From positions 264,426 to 328,425 of the forward strand of contig JAQSYP010000002.1 of assembly GCA_029256085.1 (NCBI GenBank): a stretch of 64,000 nucleotides of DNA, written 5' to 3'. Position numbers and translations under genes: made by a program. Positions 13,463-64,000 of the stretch are shown piece by piece. A model generated the notes under the pieces. It made no database searches, had not been told where the DNA came from, and saw nothing but the letters and a program-made list of their open reading frames with translations. Each line of letters starts with the position of its first letter. Positions within the stretch are counted from its first letter, which is position 1. Origin of the DNA: Bacillales bacterium (GTDB lineage Bacteria; Bacillota; Bacilli; CAJFEE01).

Positions 13463-13580
13463 TCATATTCCATAATTTCTGCACAATTATATTTTATATT
13501 AAGTACATGAAAACCTTTCAAACCTTAAAACCCTAACCTTTTTTCTGTGGACTACCCGAAAACCACAGATTTTTTTTTGT
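13463..13580. repeat. interspersed ~105-bp repeat, copy A (bcr-type / MITE-like element of the B. cereus group)
   Basis: Shares ATATTTTCTGCACAATTATRTTTTATATTWAGTACATGAAAACCTTTCAWRCCTTAAAACCCTAACCTTTTTCTGTGGA…CCACAG with 16329–16436, 19337–19453 and 21441–21558. Ends in an inverted repeat (CTGTGGA…CCACAG). Confidence 0.7.
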
Positions 13581-13591
13581 GTTTTTTTAAC

Positions 13592-13710
13592 TTATAATCC
13601 AAAGATTGAGGTTTATAATCCGAACTAGCTATTATTTAATCCGATATATGTGTTTTTTAATCCGAAATTTATTTTTTTAATCCAAACTCAAAGTTTTATA
13701 ATCCAAACAA
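13592..13710. repeat. phased array of six T(T/A)TAATCC(A/G)A motifs at ~20–22-bp spacing
   Basis: ttataatccaaa / ttataatccgaa / tttaatccgat / ttaatccgaaa / ttaatccaaac / tataatccaaac, seen directly in the sequence between two convergent gene ends. Confidence 0.6.
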
Positions 13711-16319: not shown

Positions 16320-16328
16320 AATCTTTTT

Positions 16329-16436
16329 TGCATATTTTCTGCACAATTATGTTTTATATTAAGTACATGAAAACCTTTCATACCTTAAAACCCTAACCTT
16401 TTTCTGTGGATTCTCGAAACCCACAGATTTTTTTGT
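16329..16436. repeat. interspersed ~105-bp repeat, copy B
   Basis: Over 90% identical to copies A, C and D. Confidence 0.7.
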
Positions 16437-16440
16437 TCTC

Positions 16441-16545
16441 ATTCAAATTAAGGAAATCTTCTTTATCCTCTTGTGCAAAAACAATTACCTTTTATCCACC
16501 TTTTGGCATTGGAGCTCCATTGACAATAATTTCTACCAGACGAAA
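16441..16545 (-). pseudogene. relic fragment paralogous to the 219-aa gene at 21567–22226
   Basis: Minus-strand translation LVEIIVNGAPMPKGG*KVIVFAQEDKEDFLNLN aligns with LVAVTFNGIPLSKVGEKVILFAGEDKEDFYNLN of the intact gene, with an in-frame stop. The first 20 nt (GAAATCTTCTTTATCCTCT) are identical at DNA level. Truncated where repeat copy B begins. Confidence 0.55.
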
Positions 16546-16886
16546 TATTTTCATGTATTTTCATCTTTCCACTATTATTTTCAATAATTCCTATTTTGGT
16601 TATACACCTAGGTTCTACTAATCCAATCACATTTTCATTCAACCAAAAAAATAGAGTTTAAGTAATACACATTAGTAACGAGTCAAAATTAAGTGATATC
16701 CACAAACTTTTAAATTTATGTTTTTAATGAATTGCGAGTCCTGAGTAATTCCCTCTAAATGAACATCCCATTACTATTATCAAATCCAATAGTTTCATAG
16801 TAAAGTGAAATAATATTAAAAGAATTATTCTAGAGTGTAACTTTTAGATGATTTATCTGTCTATATAGGCAGAGAGGAGAACGCGC

Positions 16887-17386
16887 ATGTCAGACCCTAG
16901 GATTGAACTATATGAGACTTACAAAGATACTGTTTATTTGTATCTTTATCGGTCATCTCTAAATAAGCAAATAGCCGAAGATTTAACACATGATACTTTT
17001 TTAAGTGCCTTCCAATCTCTAGGTAAATTTAGAGGAGAGTCGTCACTGAAAACATGGTTAATCAAAATTGCAAGAAATAATTATATTAGCTTTTCCCAGA
17101 AGAAACAAAATAAGTTGAAATACATACCAAAGACATATATGAATACGAAACCAATCAACGTGATCATTATAAATGCCTCGATGAGAAGCTGTTAATACAA
17201 TTAGTTCTTGTTAAAATGCAAGAAAATTATCGAACATATATTATTTTGCGTGATGTTAACGGTTTAACTTATGAAGAAATATCTGTAGTAACTAATGAAA
17301 CGATTCATCAAGTTAAAGTTGGCCTTTACCGTGCTAGGAAAAAATTTCGAGAATTATATAAGGAAGTGAATGAAGAATGGAATTAG
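16887..17386 (+). pseudogene. ECF (sigma-70 family) RNA polymerase sigma factor, disrupted by a frameshift
   Basis: Region 2 (…DLTHDTFLSAFQSLGKFRGESSLKTWLIKIARNNYIS) is in frame 0 and stops at 17195. Region 4 (LDEKLLIQLVLVKMQENYRTYIILRDVNGLTYEEISVVTNETIHQVKVGLYRARKKF) continues in another frame to the TAG at 17384–17386. The shift maps to the A-tract near 17105–17115, consistent with a 1-nt deletion. Confidence 0.7.
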
Positions 17387-18828
17387 AACACGATGTAGTT
17401 AAAGACTTATACCCATTATATATTGAAAATGATTTGAGTCCATCCGTTAAAATGGCAGTCGATGAACATTTAAAAAAATGTGACCACTGTTCAAAAAATT
17501 ATAATAGCAGCGTAGGATTTTCTGAGAATTTAAAAGAGTTGGAAAAACCCGTAATTGCAAATAAGGTTGATGAAAAAATAATACTTAAAGTAAAGATAAA
17601 TCAATTAAAATACTTAACTATGTTTTTAGCTAGTATTATACTTACAATTTTAATTTTAGATTACAAAAATGACCGAGAAAAACTATTAACTAAATTTCAA
17701 GATTACTTTATCGCAGCCGACTTTTTACCAGATTCATTTGCTCCTATTAAAGACAACACACACAGCAACCTAGAATATTTAAAAGAAGACATTTTCCGTA
17801 TATTTGAGAAAAAAATAATTTTAGAAGAAAACTTAAATTACTTTGAAAAACGCGAACTGAATAATACAGAGTACCGTTTAACATTACATGATGATAGTTT
17901 TAATAAAATGCTCGAAATTATGGAAATGCGCTATGACCAGGGTTTATGGGATAAAACAGACGAGGCAGTATATCAAAAAACACAAAAATACTTCCTAGAT
18001 TTTAGCAAATTACTTGGTAAGCAAGAAAATAAGTTAAATCATGGTTATAGTTCCTATTTTGAAACACTAGATATTGTAGAAATGGATAAATTTTACAAAA
18101 AGATCAATTTATTAAGTGATAGTTATACTAGATTTCATAAACTTCCAGAACAATTACATCCTATCGGCAAATCAAAATTAAAGAAAATAATAGCAAGAAA
18201 ACTTAACGTAAGTGTCAGCGATGTAAAGATATTAAAAAATAGATTGAGTGAAATTCCCTTTAACTATGAATTTGTAATACAAGATAAATACAACGGTTGG
18301 ATAGACGGATATAATGGACAAATTACTACCGTAAATGGAAATCATGGTCTATCTGACGGTCAAGTAATGACAACTGATAATGCAAAGAAAAAAGCGCACG
18401 AACACCTCCAAAATATATATGGTGATAAAATTAGTTTCAACTTAGTTTCGTTAGGTTTTAACTATAATTATGAATTTTCCAACTCAGATTTTAAGGTACA
18501 TAGCTTTAGAGTAGTTCCAGTACTTAAAGGATACAAGTTCTATACACGATACAATGAAGGTACGATTATTCACATAGATTCAGATACTGGTAAGCTTAGA
18601 ATGTTAAGTCTTGATAATAGAATAGGAGATCTTAACGAATTCCCTAAAACTGACTTAACTATTAAAATATCTAAAGAAAAACTACAAAATAAAAATCTAA
18701 CCGACACAGTTATCATATACTCCGAACTAACAGGTAAATTCGAATTAGTATATATGAACCCTAGGCTGGAGGATTTTGAAAAAGAGAAATTTTATTCAAC
18801 AAAAGGAAATTTCAAACTTTCTTATTAG
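17377..18828 (+). CDS. anti-sigma factor with N-terminal zf-HC2 zinc finger, one TM segment and a large extracytoplasmic domain
   Basis: ATG overlaps the sigma stop (ATGGAATTAG). HLKKCDHC matches the H-x3-C-x2-C motif. TM segment YLTMFLASIILTILILDY. 483 aa. Confidence 0.7.
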   Translation: MELEHDVVKDLYPLYIENDLSPSVKMAVDEHLKKCDHCSKNYNSSVGFSENLKELEKPVIANKVDEKIILKVKINQLKYLTMFLASIILTILILDYKNDREKLLTKFQDYFIAADFLPDSFAPIKDNTHSNLEYLKEDIFRIFEKKIILEENLNYFEKRELNNTEYRLTLHDDSFNKMLEIMEMRYDQGLWDKTDEAVYQKTQKYFLDFSKLLGKQENKLNHGYSSYFETLDIVEMDKFYKKINLLSDSYTRFHKLPEQLHPIGKSKLKKIIARKLNVSVSDVKILKNRLSEIPFNYEFVIQDKYNGWIDGYNGQITTVNGNHGLSDGQVMTTDNAKKKAHEHLQNIYGDKISFNLVSLGFNYNYEFSNSDFKVHSFRVVPVLKGYKFYTRYNEGTIIHIDSDTGKLRMLSLDNRIGDLNEFPKTDLTIKISKEKLQNKNLTDTVIIYSELTGKFELVYMNPRLEDFEKEKFYSTKGNFKLSY

Positions 18829-18832
18829 CAAA

Positions 18833-18862
18833 AAAAGGACTCCTCAGAGTCCTTTTTAAGTT
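18833..18862 (+). terminator. rho-independent terminator
   Basis: AAAAAGGACTCCTCAGAGTCCTTTTT hairpin followed by a T-run. Confidence 0.65.
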
Positions 18863-18958
18863 TGTTGTTTGTTATCGTATTCTTTAAAACCTATTTGTAA
18901 TTTATTTAGCAACTCAGCTTGAGCTTTTTTATTATAAATTATTTGTGTTTCACTATAT

Positions 18959-19144
18959 TTATTTATCTATAACTCTGTAAGCATTCGTTGAATTTAAGTG
19001 GTTATCAAAAATCCACTGCTTTATTTCATCTTTTTCTCTTAATCTATCCATCTTTTTCTTATATTCTACTGGATCGTCAGGTTTACTCTTTCTTGTGTTT
19101 CCAGAAAATATAGCCTCTAAGATATCTTTGAAAAAATCCTCCAT
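18959..19144 (-). CDS. small hypothetical protein (61 aa)
   Basis: Short charged ORF; no recognisable motif. Confidence 0.3.
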   Translation of the reverse strand: MEDFFKDILEAIFSGNTRKSKPDDPVEYKKKMDRLREKDEIKQWIFDNHLNSTNAYRVIDK

Positions 19145-19336
19145 AAAATCACTCTCCCTATTATCCGTAACCTACAATTTTTCACTCTATCAATTGAAAC
19201 GTAAACGGTAACCAATAATTTCTATCTTAAATATCATCCAATGATTCTTTAAGAATAACTTGAGAAAGTAAAACCTTTCGTCTTTATCTATTATTCTTTC
19301 AAATTTTACCTCAATTTAAAAATTTTGATAAGGGAT

Positions 19337-19453
19337 TTTCCATATTTTCTGCACAATTATGTTTTATATTTAGTACATGAAAACCTTTCATACCTTAAAA
19401 CCCTAACCTTTTTCTGTGGATTCTCGAAACCCACAGTATTTTTTTTGCCTAAA
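19337..19453. repeat. interspersed ~105-bp repeat, copy C
   Basis: As copies A, B and D. Shares the extended 3' tail TATTTTTTTTGCCTAAA with copy D. Confidence 0.7.
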
Positions 19454-19490
19454 TTTGAAATAGTGCAAATAAATTTTGTCCGCACTACTT

Positions 19491-20186
19491 TTAAAACATT
19501 CCTGGTTTCTTGTTTAGAGGCTCATTAAAAAGATCAACATTTAAATTACCTGTTGAGTCTAGTTCGGCTAAAAATATGTCTTCTGCTTTTTGCGCGCCTT
19601 GCTTTACTATCTCCTGCTGCAACCACTTAGTATCTAACTTTGCAAATTTCAAATTATTATATTGTATTTCCCCATCAATAATTAGTGGTAGTGTTAGTCC
19701 CTCATATTGGGTATCTATATTCAAATCACTAGGAGTTACAGGTCTATTTTGTGATGTTGGAATTACAGATAGATTACCATCCGGTTCTATTATAGCGAAC
19801 TCTACATCTGAAACTTTTGCATATCCTTGTAATCTCAATAACGATAATAAGAAAGGCAAATTCATTCTATTTCGTCTCATTGCTTGTCTGTCAATTTTGC
19901 CGTTCACAATTATAATTTCAGGTTTAACATCAAAATTATAAAACCATTTATTTAATGATAATCTACCTATAATAACAGCCATAACGGCAATCGTGACTGT
20001 ACCTATGAAAGCTTTAGTTGTTACCTTGTATACTAGCGGTTCAGCCGCAACGTTAGCTAGAACCATAAGCGCCGTGAAATCATAGGATGTTAGCTGAGAA
20101 ATAGACTTCCTTCCAATTAGCCTAACACTAAACCATGAGAAAATTAATACAACTATACATCGAGATACATAAACTAAGAAATCCAT
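19491..20186 (-). CDS. DUF421 (YetF-like) membrane protein
   Basis: SISQLTSYDFTALMVLANVAAEPLV together with the C-terminal YetF-type soluble domain. Confidence 0.7.
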   Translation of the reverse strand: MDFLVYVSRCIVVLIFSWFSVRLIGRKSISQLTSYDFTALMVLANVAAEPLVYKVTTKAFIGTVTIAVMAVIIGRLSLNKWFYNFDVKPEIIIVNGKIDRQAMRRNRMNLPFLLSLLRLQGYAKVSDVEFAIIEPDGNLSVIPTSQNRPVTPSDLNIDTQYEGLTLPLIIDGEIQYNNLKFAKLDTKWLQQEIVKQGAQKAEDIFLAELDSTGNLNVDLFNEPLNKKPGMF

Positions 20187-20198
20187 TTTTCACCCTTC

Positions 20199-20618
20199 TT
20201 ATGGCTCTGGAACTATTCTTAAAAAATTGTTCCAAAGTTTTAATGCAGACATTGCCTGTCCAACCGTCTCTGTATCATCTTTGGTCTTTATAGCACCATT
20301 CATACGGGAAAGATTATCTACAAAAAGTAAATAGTCTGCCTCAGCATAATTCAAAGCAATTAAGTACTTATTTTTCTCCCACGAAGACATTAGCTTTCTT
20401 GACGAAACCTCCGCATCACTCCATCGTTCTTCCTGTGCATAATTAATTATGTTGTTAAGTTCACTTTCAATTGGTTTAGTTGAAGTAAGAACTGCATATC
20501 TTGCAATGAAGTATGCTATAAATAGTAAAACTACAATACCAAGCAATGAGTTAGTAACAGTTCTATTTCTCACGCCTAGTCCCCCTTTTTTCTTAACGCT
20601 ATAACCGATTATTGACAA
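20199..20618 (-). CDS. DUF4363-like membrane-anchored protein (partner of DUF421)
   Basis: 139 aa with an N-terminal TM. Gene order with DUF421 is conserved in Bacilli. Confidence 0.45.
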   Translation of the reverse strand: MSIIGYSVKKKGGLGVRNRTVTNSLLGIVVLLFIAYFIARYAVLTSTKPIESELNNIINYAQEERWSDAEVSSRKLMSSWEKNKYLIALNYAEADYLLFVDNLSRMNGAIKTKDDTETVGQAMSALKLWNNFLRIVPEP

Positions 20619-20704
20619 AAGAATGACTGCATAAACATTATCTTTTTTGCTTTTAGATTAAATAAAAGACACACTTTATAATAATAAGTGTGTCTTTTAG
20701 TCTA

Positions 20705-21412
20705 CTATTTTTTTCCTAATGAAAATCCTTCAAACAGTCTACCACCATATGGTTGTAGAACCTCATCTACTAAATTAATTACTGCACATTTTTTATTATT
20801 TTTATAGAATTCATCAAAAGCATATACAAACTGTTCTGCAAACTCTAAATCATACTGCTTTAATGAACGCAAAGCCCATTTTGATGTACCAGTCCACTTA
20901 CGGTTTGTTCGCAAAACAAATTCGATTACTAAATCAGCTAAAGCATTTGCAACAAAAATCCCTTCTGGTCTATTACCGCATCCGATAAAATCTTCTAATA
21001 CATCTGTTATAAAATATCTTTTAAAATTTATAGTTTCGCTAGTCCAGGCTTCTGGACCCTTATCAAGAAGTTTTTGCGCTTCATTTTTTATAATGTCGAG
21101 TATATTTTCATCCTTTAAAACAAATCCCTCTGAAACCATTCTAGGCAACGAAGGTCTTGCCCTTTTACAGTCATTTTCAAAGTAATCTTTATAAGAAATA
21201 AAGTTATGTACAAATATTTCAATCGGCCATCCGAAAGCTATTAGTGATTCGCGATAGGCTGTGGAGATATCGTTACAGAAAACAACAATATCTAGATCAG
21301 ATGTTTCAGTAAATTCTCCCCTAATAACACTCCCTGCCAATACTGCTCCTTGGCAATCTGGAAAATATTCACTAATAAAGTTTCTTGCAGCTTCAATAGG
21401 CTCTTGTCTCAT
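20705..21412 (-). CDS. nucleotidyltransferase domain protein (Pol-beta superfamily; possible antibiotic nucleotidyltransferase)
   Basis: AVLAGSVIRGEFTETSDLDIVVF is the GS…D.D NTase motif; plus a C-terminal helical domain. Confidence 0.6.
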   Translation of the reverse strand: MRQEPIEAARNFISEYFPDCQGAVLAGSVIRGEFTETSDLDIVVFCNDISTAYRESLIAFGWPIEIFVHNFISYKDYFENDCKRARPSLPRMVSEGFVLKDENILDIIKNEAQKLLDKGPEAWTSETINFKRYFITDVLEDFIGCGNRPEGIFVANALADLVIEFVLRTNRKWTGTSKWALRSLKQYDLEFAEQFVYAFDEFYKNNKKCAVINLVDEVLQPYGGRLFEGFSLGKK

Positions 21413-21440
21413 TTTTTGACCTCATAAAATTTTTATATGT

Positions 21441-21558
21441 TTTCCATATTTTCTGCACATTTATGTTTTATATTAAGTACATGAAAACCTTTCATGCCTT
21501 AAAACCCTAACCTTTTTCTGTGGATTCTCGAAACCACAGTATTTTTTTTGCCTAAAAT
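21441..21558. repeat. interspersed ~105-bp repeat, copy D
   Basis: As copies A–C. Confidence 0.7.
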
Positions 21559-21566
21559 CCACTTTT

Positions 21567-22226
21567 TTAATTATTTTCTATTTTGTTAATTAATTCAGCT
21601 AGTGACATTTTTAAATTATCATTTTCAGTGAATTCTATGTGTCTAAATACCTTATTGCTTTGTTCATCGATAATAAATTTACCTTGATTTGAACCTATAG
21701 GGTAATAAACTTTTTCATTCAAATTATAGAAATCTTCTTTATCCTCTCCGGCAAAAAGAATTACTTTTTCGCCAACCTTTGAAAGTGGAATCCCGTTAAA
21801 AGTTACAGCTACTAAATCAGATGACAATTTTACAGGTATGTTAAACTTATCACTGACATACTTTTGAATATTCCCTTTCGTGGTTATACCTCCAGCTTCA
21901 ACTACACTAATAACATCACCCTTTTTTATATTACTAGTAAAATTTTTTGTAACTCTTATTTTTAATTTAGAGAATGTATTTGTTTTAAAATCAAAGTATT
22001 CAATATCGAGTATTTTACCTTCGAAAATTGTATCAGAATTTAACTTTAATTCTGATACGGTATTATATGTTTTTACGGAATCCGCAAAAGCCGAAACAGT
22101 TTTTATATCGCTTAATTTTACTTTGTTGCTAATGTTTAGTATTTTAACTCTATCTTTCTGATAATATGTAAATATACCTATCACAATGATTGATAGAGAT
22201 ATAAAGCTGATTATATATTTTTTCAT
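21567..22226 (-). CDS. hypothetical signal-anchored extracytoplasmic protein (219 aa)
   Basis: N-terminal TM (MKKYIISFISLSIIVIGIFTYY). Intact paralog of the relic at 16441–16545. Confidence 0.5.
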   Translation of the reverse strand: MKKYIISFISLSIIVIGIFTYYQKDRVKILNISNKVKLSDIKTVSAFADSVKTYNTVSELKLNSDTIFEGKILDIEYFDFKTNTFSKLKIRVTKNFTSNIKKGDVISVVEAGGITTKGNIQKYVSDKFNIPVKLSSDLVAVTFNGIPLSKVGEKVILFAGEDKEDFYNLNEKVYYPIGSNQGKFIIDEQSNKVFRHIEFTENDNLKMSLAELINKIENN

Positions 22227-40256: not shown

Positions 40257-40280
40257 ATTTTTAAAGATTTTTCGACAAGT

Positions 40281-40440
40281 CGGTTGATAATAATGCATAT
40301 TGGGTTGATAAAATTGCATTTTCGGTTGATAAAATTGCTATTTCGGTTGATAAAATAACTATTTCGGTTGATAAAAATGCTTATTCGGTTGTTGATAGAA
40401 GCGTCATTTCCGCCGATAGAACTATCATTTGCGTTCATAG
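40281..40440. repeat. tandem array of about seven ~21-bp repeats (consensus CGGTTGATAAAATTGCTATTT), the last three degenerate
   Basis: Seen in sequence. Lies inside listed ORF 40238..40618(-), where it translates to FINRNS(N/Y) heptads. Confidence 0.7.
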
Positions 40441-51219: not shown

Positions 51220-51330
51220 AATAAATCCCCCTAGTAAAAAAATCTAATATTGTTTAATTCTACATTTCAGATTCTGAATCTTTTGTAGCTAAACTAGTAG
51301 GCCACTTAATCAGAAAGTGTTGTTTTTTAA

Positions 51331-51545
51331 TTTGGATTAAATATTTCGAAAAGTTAGTGGCATATTACGAAAAGTTAGTGATATATTGCCAAAAGTTAGT
51401 GATATATTGCCAAAAGTTAGTGATATATTGCCAAAAGTTAGTGATATATTGCCAAAAGTTAATGATAAATCGGTAAAAGTTAATGATATGACAAAAGGCA
51501 CCGAGACTAAGTCTTGATGCATTTTATGAGTTGAGCCAAATGAAT
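51331..51545. repeat. composite element 1: TTTGGATTAAATATT leader, seven ~21-bp tandem repeats (AAAAGTTAGTGATATATTGCC), a conserved ~40-nt hairpin segment, and a GTTGAG…CTCAAC-TTTTTT terminator hairpin
   Basis: Seen in sequence. A related element lies at 52092–52245. Confidence 0.7.
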
Positions 51546-52091: not shown

Positions 52092-52245
52092 TTTGGATTA
52101 AATATTGTGAAAAGTAGATGGTATATTGTTAAAAGTAGATGATAAAGTTATTAATATTACTATTTAAAAATGACAAAAGACACCGAGGCCAAGTCTCGAT
52201 GCCTTTTGTCGACAATTTGAAGTGAGGTTTTACCCTCACTTGAAA
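52092..52245. repeat. composite element 2 (paralog of 51331–51545): same leader, two AAAAGTAGATGGTATATTG-type repeats, the conserved GACAAAAGACACCGAGGCCAAGTCTCGATGCCTTTTGTC hairpin, and a GTGAGG…CCTCAC hairpin
   Basis: Seen in sequence. Confidence 0.7.
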
Positions 52246-59003: not shown

Positions 59004-59636
59004 TTGTCTGTTGTACTTTTTGGGTGTCAATCAAATGAAAACACTGTTAAGCAAGATAAAGCTAATAAGTTGCAATCAGAAAACAATAATAAATTAAAAT
59101 TAGAATCTGAAATTTCAAAGATCAATGTTAATAATGATAAAGGTACTGGTACAAAATTTTTTGATGATGATGAAACGATTGAAACTTTTAAAAATGTAAT
59201 TTCAAGCGCTGTAAAACACGAAGGTATGGTTGATATGGCTAGTCCTAAGTTTTTTGTAAGTGTGGGTTATGTAAAAGGAACCGGGAAATTTTTATTTTTA
59301 TGGTTAGGCGAAAAAGGGCATAGAAGTTCACTAATGGACCCTAATGATACACATACAATTTATACTGTCTCGGAAGAAATGACTGCTAAGTTAATTGACT
59401 TACTAAGTTCAAGTAACCAACAAGTGAAAGAAAATGAAAATGAAATAACAAAACAAATTGACGATGAACTAAATAGAATTATTCACAAAACTGATTTTAT
59501 GCTTTTTTCAGGTAGTCCCTTAAATTATTTTGAGAATAACCATGAACAATTTGATTATATTATTTCAAAAAAAGATATTACCTTAAATCATTTTTTGAAC
59601 AATTTTTCGGAAAATAGAATGGTTTACTGGTCGTGA
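59004..59636 (+). CDS. hypothetical lipoprotein-like protein with an anomalous N-terminus
   Basis: The lipobox LFGCQS sits only 5 aa after the first available TTG. The upstream in-frame sequence (KWGYIILTNIKFLLTLTFLSVV) looks like the rest of a signal peptide but has no canonical start codon. Confidence 0.35.
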   Translation: MSVVLFGCQSNENTVKQDKANKLQSENNNKLKLESEISKINVNNDKGTGTKFFDDDETIETFKNVISSAVKHEGMVDMASPKFFVSVGYVKGTGKFLFLWLGEKGHRSSLMDPNDTHTIYTVSEEMTAKLIDLLSSSNQQVKENENEITKQIDDELNRIIHKTDFMLFSGSPLNYFENNHEQFDYIISKKDITLNHFLNNFSENRMVYWS

Positions 59637-59727
59637 ATGGTACGTAAAATACTCTAAATTCGTTAAAGTCAGTTAATAACAAGGAACCTACTTAAAATTT
59701 TGGAGTGCAATGGAGGTTGAGTTAATC

Positions 59728-60063
59728 ATGGCAAAATATGAAACTACAATTATTGGTCAATTCGATGAAGTAGTTAGTCATTTGGAAAATGATATTAGTA
59801 ATAGTGGAATGAGTATGAAATTAGTTGATGAAAGCAACTACACTATTGGAGATACAAACGTTGCTGTTCGAGTTTATGATAAATATTTTATGAGAAATGG
59901 AAACAGAGCAAGTTTAAGTCTTACTGTTGTAGGTAATAACAGCAATATTTTCATTTCAGCAATTGGTGCTGGCGGTGGACAAGGTATTATTTTTAACTTT
60001 AGTCTTGGTGCTGAAGATAATATGGTGGAAATCGTGCAAAAAAGTATAGAACAAATGGAGTAA
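59728..60063 (+). CDS. small conserved hypothetical protein, paralog 1 (~111 aa; MAKYETTIIGQFDEV…AIGAGGGQGIIFNFSLGAED)
   Basis: ATG 9 nt after GGAGG. About 95% nucleotide identity to 62989–63324. Confidence 0.55.
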   Translation: MAKYETTIIGQFDEVVSHLENDISNSGMSMKLVDESNYTIGDTNVAVRVYDKYFMRNGNRASLSLTVVGNNSNIFISAIGAGGGQGIIFNFSLGAEDNMVEIVQKSIEQME

Positions 60064-60069
60064 TACTAT

Positions 60070-60106
60070 TTGTTGAAACAGTCACGATATAAAATCGTGA
60101 CTGTTT
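60070..60106. terminator. bidirectional terminator
   Basis: AAACAGTCACGAT-ATAAAA-TCGTGACTGTTTTT hairpin. Confidence 0.65.
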
Positions 60107-60110
60107 TTGA

Positions 60111-60920
60111 CTAATTATTTTTTATACTCTGATTAATATTTTTTAACTCATTTCCAACTATTCTTTTTATTTTTTCATTACCTATAACTCCACTATGAAA
60201 TGTATTTGTATCTATCCAATAAGTTTGCCAGAAGGTAATTCCGTTATTAAGTTCAATTTCTAGGAAAATGCGTTTACCTTCCAACTTACGTTCATCAATT
60301 AATGTTTGGACATCTCTAAGTTTTAGTTTATACCATTCTTCTAAAAACATATTTTTACTAAATTGAGAAAATGTATGAATTCTACTACCATCATCAGTGC
60401 TTTGTATATAAATTTTATTAACAAAGTTTTTCATAGGAAACAGCTCATCAGCAGTTTTTGCTTTCATGTTATTATATACGACATATACTTGATTATTGGC
60501 ACTTACAATTAAGTTCGAAGGGTAACCACGCACCTCATAAATTGGTGTATTTATATCTAAGTATGTTGCATCACCATTTTTCATTTTATGGTCACTACAT
60601 GCATAGCCTGCCATAGTATAACTTACTTTCCCAATTTCATTGCCATTTTCCACTTGAATGGTTGTATCACCTCGATATTTATTACTTTCATATCTAATAT
60701 CATTAATCTTAAGTGTATCCACCCAACTAATTTCCGCATCAGGACATTCTTTTCTATCTTTATATAAATGGTCTAAGTCCTTATTAATTTGTTCAGATTC
60801 CTTGTATTCTTCACCTTCAGAAACTACATCATAAAAATAGTTTCTAATCGTAATGGATGAAGTATAAATTAATATGATAACTATTATAGATATTAGGATT
60901 TTAATTTTACTAATATTCAT
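60111..60920 (-). CDS. signal-anchored hypothetical protein, paralog 1 (269 aa)
   Basis: N-terminal TM (ISKIKILISIIVIILIYTS). Paralog of 63377–>64000. Confidence 0.5.
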   Translation of the reverse strand: MNISKIKILISIIVIILIYTSSITIRNYFYDVVSEGEEYKESEQINKDLDHLYKDRKECPDAEISWVDTLKINDIRYESNKYRGDTTIQVENGNEIGKVSYTMAGYACSDHKMKNGDATYLDINTPIYEVRGYPSNLIVSANNQVYVVYNNMKAKTADELFPMKNFVNKIYIQSTDDGSRIHTFSQFSKNMFLEEWYKLKLRDVQTLIDERKLEGKRIFLEIELNNGITFWQTYWIDTNTFHSGVIGNEKIKRIVGNELKNINQSIKNN

Positions 60921-62775: not shown

Positions 62776-62988
62776 ACAAAAATACACTTTATCACAGTGT
62801 ATTTAAGTGCAATTTCAAGTGCCGTAAAACAAAATGGAATTGTGAATATGGCTAAACCAGAATTCGATTTAAATTTCCTTAGTTCAAGTGAGAGAACGAA
62901 AAAGTAACTAAAGAACAAATTGACCGAGAATAAACAAAATTAACTAAGAAAGCTACTTAAAAACGAAGCGCTGGAGGTTGTGTTAATC

Positions 62989-63324
62989 ATGGCAAAATAT
63001 GAAACTACAATTATTGGTCAATTTGATGAAGTAGTTAGTCATTTGGAAAACGATATTAGTAATAGTGGAATGAGTATGAAATTAGTTGATGAAAGTAACT
63101 ACACTATTGGAGATACTAGCATAGCAGTTCGAGTTTATGATAAATATTTTATGCGAAATGGAAACAGAGCAAGTTTGAGTCTTACTGTTGTAGGTAATAA
63201 CAGCAATATTTTTATATCAGCAATTGGTGCTGGCGGCGGGCAAGGTATCATTTTTAACTTTAGCCTTGGTGCTGAAGATGATATGGTGGCAATTGTGCAA
63301 AAAAGTATAGTACAAATAGAATAA
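62989..63324 (+). CDS. small conserved hypothetical protein, paralog 2
   Basis: Near-identical to 59728–60063. Confidence 0.55.
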   Translation: MAKYETTIIGQFDEVVSHLENDISNSGMSMKLVDESNYTIGDTSIAVRVYDKYFMRNGNRASLSLTVVGNNSNIFISAIGAGGGQGIIFNFSLGAEDDMVAIVQKSIVQIE

Positions 63325-63338
63325 TATTATTGTTAAAA

Positions 63339-63370
63339 CAGTCACGATACAACACCGTGACTGTTTTTTT
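63339..63370. terminator. bidirectional terminator
   Basis: AAACAGTCACGAT-ACAACAC-CGTGACTGTTTTTTT hairpin. Confidence 0.65.
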
Positions 63371-63376
63371 GCGAAC

Positions 63377-64000
63377 TTATGGTTTTTTATTACCCTGTTT
63401 AATATTTTTCAACTCATTTTCAATAATTCTTTTTATGTTTTTATTACCAATAACTCCGTTGTGAAATGTATTTGTATCTATCCAATAAGTTTGCCCGAAA
63501 GTAATTCCGTTATTTAGTTCAATTTCTAAAAAAATACGTTCACCTTCCAACTTACGTTCATCAATTACTGTTTGAACATCTCTAAGTTTTAGTTTATACC
63601 ATTCTTCTAAAAACATATTTTTATTAATTTGAGAAAATGTATGAATTCTACTACCATCATCAGTGCTTTGTATATAAATTTTATTAACTAAATTTTTCAG
63701 AGGTAATAGTTCTTCAGCAGTTTTTGCTTTCATGTTACTATATACTACATATACTTGATTATTGGCACTTACAATAAAGTTTGAAGGGTAACCACGGACT
63801 TCATAAATTGGTGTATCGATATCTAAAAATGTTGCATCACCATTTTTCATTTTGTGGTCACTACATGCATAGCCTGCCATAGTATAACTTACTTTCCCGA
63901 TTTCATTGCCATTTTCCACTTGGATGTTTGTATTACTTCGAGAAAAAATAATTTCATATCTAATATCATTAATCTTAAGTGCATCCACCCAACTAATCTC
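63377..64000 (-). CDS. signal-anchored hypothetical protein, paralog 2 (C-terminal part; N-terminus beyond window end)
   Basis: About 90% aa identity to the protein at 60111–60920 over the visible 203 aa. Confidence 0.5.
   Translation of the reverse strand, partial: EISWVDALKINDIRYEIIFSRSNTNIQVENGNEIGKVSYTMAGYACSDHKMKNGDATFLDIDTPIYEVRGYPSNFIVSANNQVYVVYSNMKAKTAEELLPLKNLVNKIYIQSTDDGSRIHTFSQINKNMFLEEWYKLKLRDVQTVIDERKLEGERIFLEIELNNGITFGQTYWIDTNTFHNGVIGNKNIKRIIENELKNIKQGNKKP

Follow-up and report, generated by a model that had tools for sequence, protein, structure and literature searches.

A probable dead paralog, partly inverted, abutting an interspersed repeat in a Bacillales genome

The DNA analysed here is a window of 64,000 nucleotides (nt) from a Bacillales bacterium (assembly GCA_029256085.1, contig JAQSYP010000002.1, positions 264,426 to 328,425), and the subject is a gene relic at 16436-16711 of this window, together with the repeat that adjoins it. 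The relic is very probably a dead paralog of an intact gene at 21567-22226, which encodes a protein of 219 amino acids (219-aa), referred to below as p219 or P0001. It abuts copy B of a repeat of ~110 nt that is present in four copies (A to D). Its full history can be proposed with less assurance: the likeliest course is that an old paralog was broken by inversion and deletions, and that a younger repeat was then joined to the broken end. As part of that history, gene and repeat were probably not copied as one unit. An earlier note on this DNA had recognised one end of the relic and had offered two origins for it, insertion of the repeat into the paralog or a joint duplication of gene and repeat.

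Relic C-part: 16436-16632, minus strand, homologous to nt 311-515 (codons 104-172) of the intact gene; supported by blastn, tblastn, codon alignment and shuffled controls.
Relic N-part: 16631-16711, plus strand, homologous to nt 54-132 (codons 18-44) of the intact gene; supported by blastn (Plus/Minus) and alignment.
Intact 219-aa gene (P0001, p219): 21567-22226, minus strand; predicted N-terminal membrane anchor or signal followed by an NTR/TIMP-like OB-fold domain.

Homology between the relic and the intact gene is evident at both the protein and the DNA level. When the 219-aa protein was compared with all six frames of the window by tblastn, the sole match outside the gene itself was 16438-16539 on the minus strand (22/34 residues identical, E = 2e-8), and a profile of the gene family also matches 16396-16491. 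At the DNA level, 16436-16632 is colinear with 21712-21916 in the same orientation (143/205 positions identical, 70%; blastn E = 5e-22), and 16631-16711 matches 22173-22095 in the opposite orientation (60/81 identical; blastn E = 5e-10). As a control, 300 dinucleotide-preserving shuffles of the relic were made and the best score of each against the intact gene was recorded. The shuffles reached a mean of 22.1 bits (sd 2.2) and a maximum of 31.9 bits; the real relic scores 89.7 and 50.0 bits for the C-part and N-part, or 3 times and 1.6 times the best of the shuffles.

The earlier note had confined the homology to the 105 bp next to the repeat, and its minus-strand translation of 16441-16545 was correct. 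That this piece is a decayed homolog of the 219-aa gene is borne out by the scores above; its length was underestimated, as the whole relic spans ~276 bp and includes an inverted 5' piece that had been overlooked. A run of 20 identical nucleotides had been reported at the 3' edge of the fragment. The longest exact run is in fact 19 nt (16453-16471 = 21729-21747) and begins 17 nt in from the repeat junction, and an alignment of the two regions shows similarity that extends far past it.

The relic is thoroughly decayed. In the C-part, 54 of the 197 aligned positions are mismatched (27%), distributed over codon positions 1, 2 and 3 as 18, 12 and 24, so that 37% of third positions differ. The in-frame stop described earlier is a TAA that replaces the GAA codon of E153, and it is accompanied by a 3-nt deletion and a frameshifting 5-nt deletion. 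The N-part carries 19 mismatches (24%), one stop and a 2-nt insertion. Across both parts there are two in-frame stops and no start codon. The two parts are joined head-to-head at 16631/16632, with the N-part on the strand opposite the C-part. Codons 1-17, 45-103 and 173-219 have been lost; the missing 3' end noted before thus amounts to 47 codons plus the stop codon, rather than ~49 codons. No trace of the lost codons was found elsewhere in the 64-kb window by tblastn, family profile or DNA comparison. The relic is itself functionless. It fills roughly half of a 567-bp interval, between 16319 and 16887, in which the source annotation, made by the Joint Genome Institute (JGI), calls no gene.

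Two further candidate matches were rejected. An extension of the N-part to residues 5-18 is hydrophobic and of low complexity, and overlaps DNA that is already homologous, on the other strand, to codons 104-122. A second occurrence of TTTTCATTCAA at 16632-16642 (13/14 match, E = 0.23) was not accepted as a meaningful signature.

The possibility that no relic exists, and that the similarity arose by chance or from a conserved motif (EDKEDF) in AT-rich DNA, or that the locus is an assembly chimera at the repeats, has to be weighed against this evidence. The 34 best-matching residues are indeed the most conserved motif of the family, and over them P0002, a family member from another organism, is 64% identical to the relic, compared with 65% for the local gene. 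Copies B and C of the repeat are also identical over ~64 nt, which could confuse assemblers. However, the DNA homology extends over 205 nt and 81 nt, well above every shuffle, and the N-part, which lies in a family-variable region, matches the local gene only. Both junctions also stand inside one contig of a second assembler: in the Logan assembly SRR35185192, contig L004 corresponds to window positions 16397-19401 at 100% identity and contains the repeat/relic junction, the inversion junction and the entire relic. We therefore consider a spurious relic very improbable.

To place the relic within the family, it was projected codon by codon onto the intact gene and compared with family representatives at 50% clustering. 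The C-part peptide is identical to p219 at 34 of 63 positions, and the next best family member reaches 28 of 63. The N-part peptide, which falls in a variable linker, is more discriminating: p219 matches at 14 of 25 positions, and every other member at 4 or fewer. On these aligned residues, no sampled family member is closer to the relic than the intact gene. The relic is thus better described as a decayed local paralog than as a foreign fragment. The split between the relic and the gene is old.

The repeat is the second element of this locus. Its ends were drawn from the comparison of the four copies, which are arranged as follows.

Repeat copy A: 13465-13579, plus strand; starts 10 nt past a GNAT gene, with a minus-strand nitroreductase gene 180 nt to its right.
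Repeat copy B: 16326-16435, plus strand, ~110 nt; starts 6 nt past the stop of a 168-aa plus-strand gene.
Repeat copy C: 19333-19447, plus strand; ends ~40 nt from the 3' end of a minus-strand YetF/DUF421 gene.
Repeat copy D: 21439-21550, plus strand; ends 16 nt from the stop codon of the intact 219-aa gene.

Each copy consists of a small hairpin, a C-rich stretch, a hairpin of 6-7 bp, then a run of 7-9 T and a G; in copy B the run is seven T followed by G. Copies B and C are 97.3% identical, B and D 95.5%, and C and D 93% over 135 nt, whereas copy A is ~90-92% identical to the others. All four have the same orientation, and in each case the next gene to the right is, or was, on the minus strand and ends toward the repeat. 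These right-hand neighbours are the nitroreductase gene (A), the relic (B), the YetF/DUF421 gene (C) and the p219 gene (D), and those at A and C are unrelated to the p219 family. The earlier observation that the intact gene is followed by copy D and that the relic abuts copy B was accurate. So was the statement that homology stops where the repeat begins: the 3' end of the C-part, at codon 172, directly follows the G at 16435, which is the last base common to all four copies. Because the relic homology starts right after this base, joining at the boundary of a discrete unit, with a deletion, is favoured.

The course of events that we favour can be set out in steps. A lineage-specific duplication long ago would have produced the paralog, which then diverged to ~27% of aligned sites. 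It would have been wrecked by an inversion, with breaks near nt 53/54 and 310/311 of the gene, or else by a fusion of two divergent copies. Inversion of nt 54-310, followed by loss of the part beyond nt 132, would yield the observed junction at 16631/16632. Further deletions and point decay would have followed. The repeat of ~110 nt would be a separate unit, either much younger or homogenised. Copy B would have become attached where the paralog was broken at its 3' side, and the same event would have taken away the spacer and the last 47 codons. The longer extent of the relic and its internal inversion imply that several rearrangements were involved. Each of the four copies adjoins the 3' end of a minus-strand gene, and two of these genes are unrelated to p219; adjacency therefore appears to be the usual position of the repeat and not a mark of co-duplication.

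The alternative of a segmental co-duplication holds that repeat, spacer and gene were copied together, that one gene then decayed and lost its 3' end and the spacer, and that the repeats were kept alike by selection or gene conversion. It gains from the equal order and relative orientation of repeat and gene at both loci. The clustering of the four copies within 8 kb suggests local copying as well, as no further copy was found in the other 56 kb of the window or in the 8 kb beyond its end. In addition, copies C and D (19319-19453 and 21426-21556) share bases that flank the 110-nt core, ACCTCA on the left and GCCTAAA on the right, a possible trace of segmental copying. Against it, copies B and D are 95.5% identical while gene and relic are only 70-74% identical, and B is nearer to C than to D. 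The homology also lies in two separate blocks, the 16-nt spacer of D and 47 codons are absent at B, and copies A and C hold a like position beside unrelated genes. The deletion that this scheme requires must moreover end exactly at the last shared base of the repeat. If repeat and gene were of the same age, the repeat would have to have evolved ~6-10 times more slowly or to have been homogenised (4.5% compared with 27-37% divergence). Co-duplication could hold only with a repeat that is under strong constraint or kept alike by conversion, and we regard it as unlikely, though worth some weight.

The C and D flanks deserve a remark of their own. These two copies may represent a longer subfamily of the repeat, or a local segmental copy. 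At copy D, the ACCTCA is the ribosome-binding site of a nucleotidyltransferase gene.

The other origin suggested before, a simple insertion, supposes that a mobile repeat of the MITE type (a miniature transposable element with inverted repeats) landed at codon 172 of an intact paralog and cut it short. The sharp boundary, with relic homology one base after the last shared base of the repeat, would be expected of such an event, as would a multi-copy repeat with highly similar copies. Assembly from k-mers also breaks at the repeat: the ends of Logan contigs fall within copies B, C and D, which is usual for repeated sequence. The displaced 3' part of the gene, however, is not found beyond the repeat, where the 168-aa gene ends 6 nt before copy B, nor anywhere in the window. 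The repeat has no terminal inverted repeats (its two ends match in inverted orientation at no more than 9-11 of 18 positions, in AT-rich sequence), and no consistent flanking direct repeat that would mark a target-site duplication was seen at the copies. Its pattern was not found in the genome, metagenome, virus and plasmid collections searched, and the inversion and internal deletion are left unexplained by insertion alone. Insertion in this simple form is accordingly judged improbable.

Those database searches were of several kinds. Rfam gave no family match for the repeat at E of 1 or below, and a blastn search of plasmids did not find it. Exact-pattern scans of metagenome contigs, species-representative genomes and viral contigs did not find the repeat, and did not return the source contig either.

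Several points weigh against the history of independent joining that we prefer. No close relative of this metagenome-assembled genome was found, which leaves no view of the paralog in its ancestral, intact state or of an empty site. If the repeat is functional, as a terminator or small RNA, or has been gene-converted over distances of 2-5 kb, then its identity is uninformative on age and co-duplication becomes possible. Both loci have the repeat on the 3' side of the gene with its T-run facing the gene, in the same order and orientation. The lack of terminal inverted repeats and target duplications at the four copies means that there is no positive sign of repeat mobility. The extra flanking bases of C and D could also be read with copy B as a slightly truncated copy. 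Finally, a deletion joining two copies of divergent orientation would leave the same arrangement as the inversion.

It is also conceivable that the repeat is an active, undescribed element of this uncultured Bacillales lineage, mobile or recombinogenic at gene 3' ends, with the truncated and rearranged paralog as its footprint, or that it is a homogenised multi-copy small-RNA gene. We think this rather doubtful. In either case, the cluster of four copies would be a hotspot at which gene ends are remodelled. Further relics were sought near copies A and C, and none was found.

A last alternative is that the relic serves as a silent donor cassette, a partial copy kept for gene conversion into an expressed surface-protein gene, with the downstream repeat as a recombination anchor. 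The pilE/pilS system of Neisseria works along such lines. The arrangement has a superficial fit, namely a promoterless partial copy 5 kb from a gene for a secreted or membrane-anchored protein, with the same repeat after both. Only one such copy is present, though, and with 27% divergence and a longest identical run of 19 nt the similarity is insufficient for homologous exchange to be efficient. This copy also contains stops and frameshifts and is partly inverted, and the repeat lies at non-equivalent gene coordinates in the two places. A donor role is scarcely credible on this evidence.

With joining of a separate repeat to an already broken paralog as the preferred explanation, the relic can be compared with known systems. 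Decaying paralogs leave pseudogene fragments in bacteria. The relic resembles ordinary fragments of this kind: the genome contains an intact homolog, the reading frame has stops and frameshifts, both ends are truncated, a start codon is lacking and no gene is called. It differs from them by its internal inversion, with pieces placed head-to-head, and by a 3' break exactly at the end of a repeat. The repeat itself, at ~100-135 nt, resembles SPRITE-like terminator repeats in being multi-copy, nearly identical between copies, intergenic and located at gene ends, and in ending with a hairpin followed by a T-run. The likeness is one of layout; no sequence relationship was established, and only four clustered copies are visible. 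It differs from bcr1 and from MITEs in being without terminal inverted repeats or 5-bp direct repeats.

From their position, copies A and B could act as terminators for the plus-strand genes that end 10 and 6 nt before them. Promoter and terminator scans gave nothing above shuffle expectation; the simple terminator scan omitted the hairpin of the repeat because its loop is longer than 8 nt. Right after copy A, six copies of a TAATCCRAA motif are spaced ~21 nt apart at 13593-13710, before the terminator of the nitroreductase gene.

The genes around the relic were also inspected. To the left of copy B, the 168-aa plus-strand gene is YhfM-like and intact. To the right of the relic lies an operon of the extracytoplasmic function (ECF) sigma factor type.

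ECF sigma gene and zf-HC2 anti-sigma gene: 16887-18828, plus strand, right of the relic; sigma gene frameshifted near 17114-17138.

The sigma gene (16887-17386) is split by this frameshift into open reading frames of 102 aa and 56 aa in both assemblies, and the two halves are ~70% identical to intact orthologs of 166-168 aa. Either the gene became a pseudogene recently, or both assemblies share a read error. Because the gene is frameshifted while its orthologs of 166-168 aa are intact, the neighbourhood appears to be decaying. Orthologs of the adjacent anti-sigma gene in Aquibacillus, Niallia, Sutcliffiella and Mesobacillus are at most 49% identical. The loci of such orthologs (47-49% identical) in Aquibacillus halophilus, a Niallia sp. 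and a JGI metagenome shared no neighbours with the window, and no p219 homolog was found near them. The window has a G+C content of 31.7%, and its composition profile shows no departure around the relic. At JGI the same DNA is contained in a metagenome contig of 475,827 bp (3300042934, Ga0456364_0000041; NCBI locus tags K0S51_).

The window also contains repeats of other types. Two intergenic 21-bp tandem arrays, at 40280-40405 and at 51320-51487 (plus 52102-52164), have 5-7 units each and differ in unit sequence; they resemble iterons or arrays of regulator binding sites. A segment of ~1 kb at 59711-60753 is duplicated at 62972-64000, 3.3 kb away, with 91-94% identity. The JGI copy of the contig (L009) has ~67 nt near 59611-59619 that are absent from the window.

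The family to which the intact gene belongs is of interest in itself. A word-indexed protein search returned only the p219 query, and it was an exhaustive HMMER search that revealed the family, with 209 cluster representatives at E of 0.001 or better. No sequence match to this family was found in Pfam, NCBIfam or the PDB. The AlphaFold model of p219 is confident, with a mean predicted local distance difference test (pLDDT) score of 89.5, and according to this model p219 has a TIMP/NTR-like fold behind a predicted signal or anchor. For locus finding, an alignment of 40 family sequences was too divergent and one of 8 sequences was used instead, which recovered a single locus from the genome collection, in Neobacillus drentensis (L008), where the homolog is present in single copy.

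Elsewhere, p219 homologs are associated with matrixin genes (PF00413). On plasmids of B. cereus and B. thuringiensis they lie directly downstream of a matrixin gene, and in C. beijerinckii a homolog is fused to matrixin. The matrixin-linked loci on three plasmids are as follows.

Matrixin-linked homolog locus on plasmid L011: 3314-4552.
Matrixin-linked homolog locus on plasmid L012: 3200-4618.
Matrixin-linked homolog locus on plasmid L013: 3292-4660.

No matrixin or metzincin gene was found in the 64-kb window, and no adjacent metzincin at the Neobacillus drentensis locus. Just upstream of the p219 homolog at the latter, at L008 5927-5974, is a stretch of 16 residues like the C-terminus of the B. 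thuringiensis matrixin (E = 0.075), adjoined by a phage-integrase fragment; by this resemblance, it may be another decayed partner gene.

In Listeria monocytogenes, the Mtz-Tim pair consists of a secreted metzincin and a TIMP-like lipoprotein (PMC8235301). The plasmid homologs beside or fused to matrixin, and the TIMP-like predicted fold, recall this pair. The likeness of Listeria Tim to the p219 family is one of predicted fold and, on the plasmids, of gene pairing; tblastn against phage genomes found nothing. The present window differs from the Listeria system in having no metzincin, and another family member in this genome is linked to an ECF sigma factor instead. This is a 321-aa single-pass protein (L009 15785-16750, minus strand) located ~4 kb past the window end (window-equivalent ~67.7-68.7 kb) and directly downstream of an ECF sigma gene. 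Its C-terminal domain belongs to the TIMP-like family of p219 (hhalign probability 97.9%), and a database member of the family, P0036, is fused to a sigma factor. These gene arrangements suggest that anti-sigma factors, too, use the TIMP-like domain as their outer portion.

Taken for what it is, the locus represents ordinary gene decay beside an undescribed terminator-like repeat, and it opens no long-standing question. The relic is a small example of the death of a bacterial paralog by inversion and deletion as well as by point decay, and it illustrates how two loci that adjoin copies of one repeat can look like a segmental duplication. As regards annotation, the 567 bp before the ECF sigma operon, nominally “intergenic”, are made up of a repeat, a pseudogene and a promoter region. 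Of more use, as a by-product of the analysis, is an unannotated TIMP/NTR-like protein family that is linked elsewhere to matrixin genes and to ECF sigma factors.

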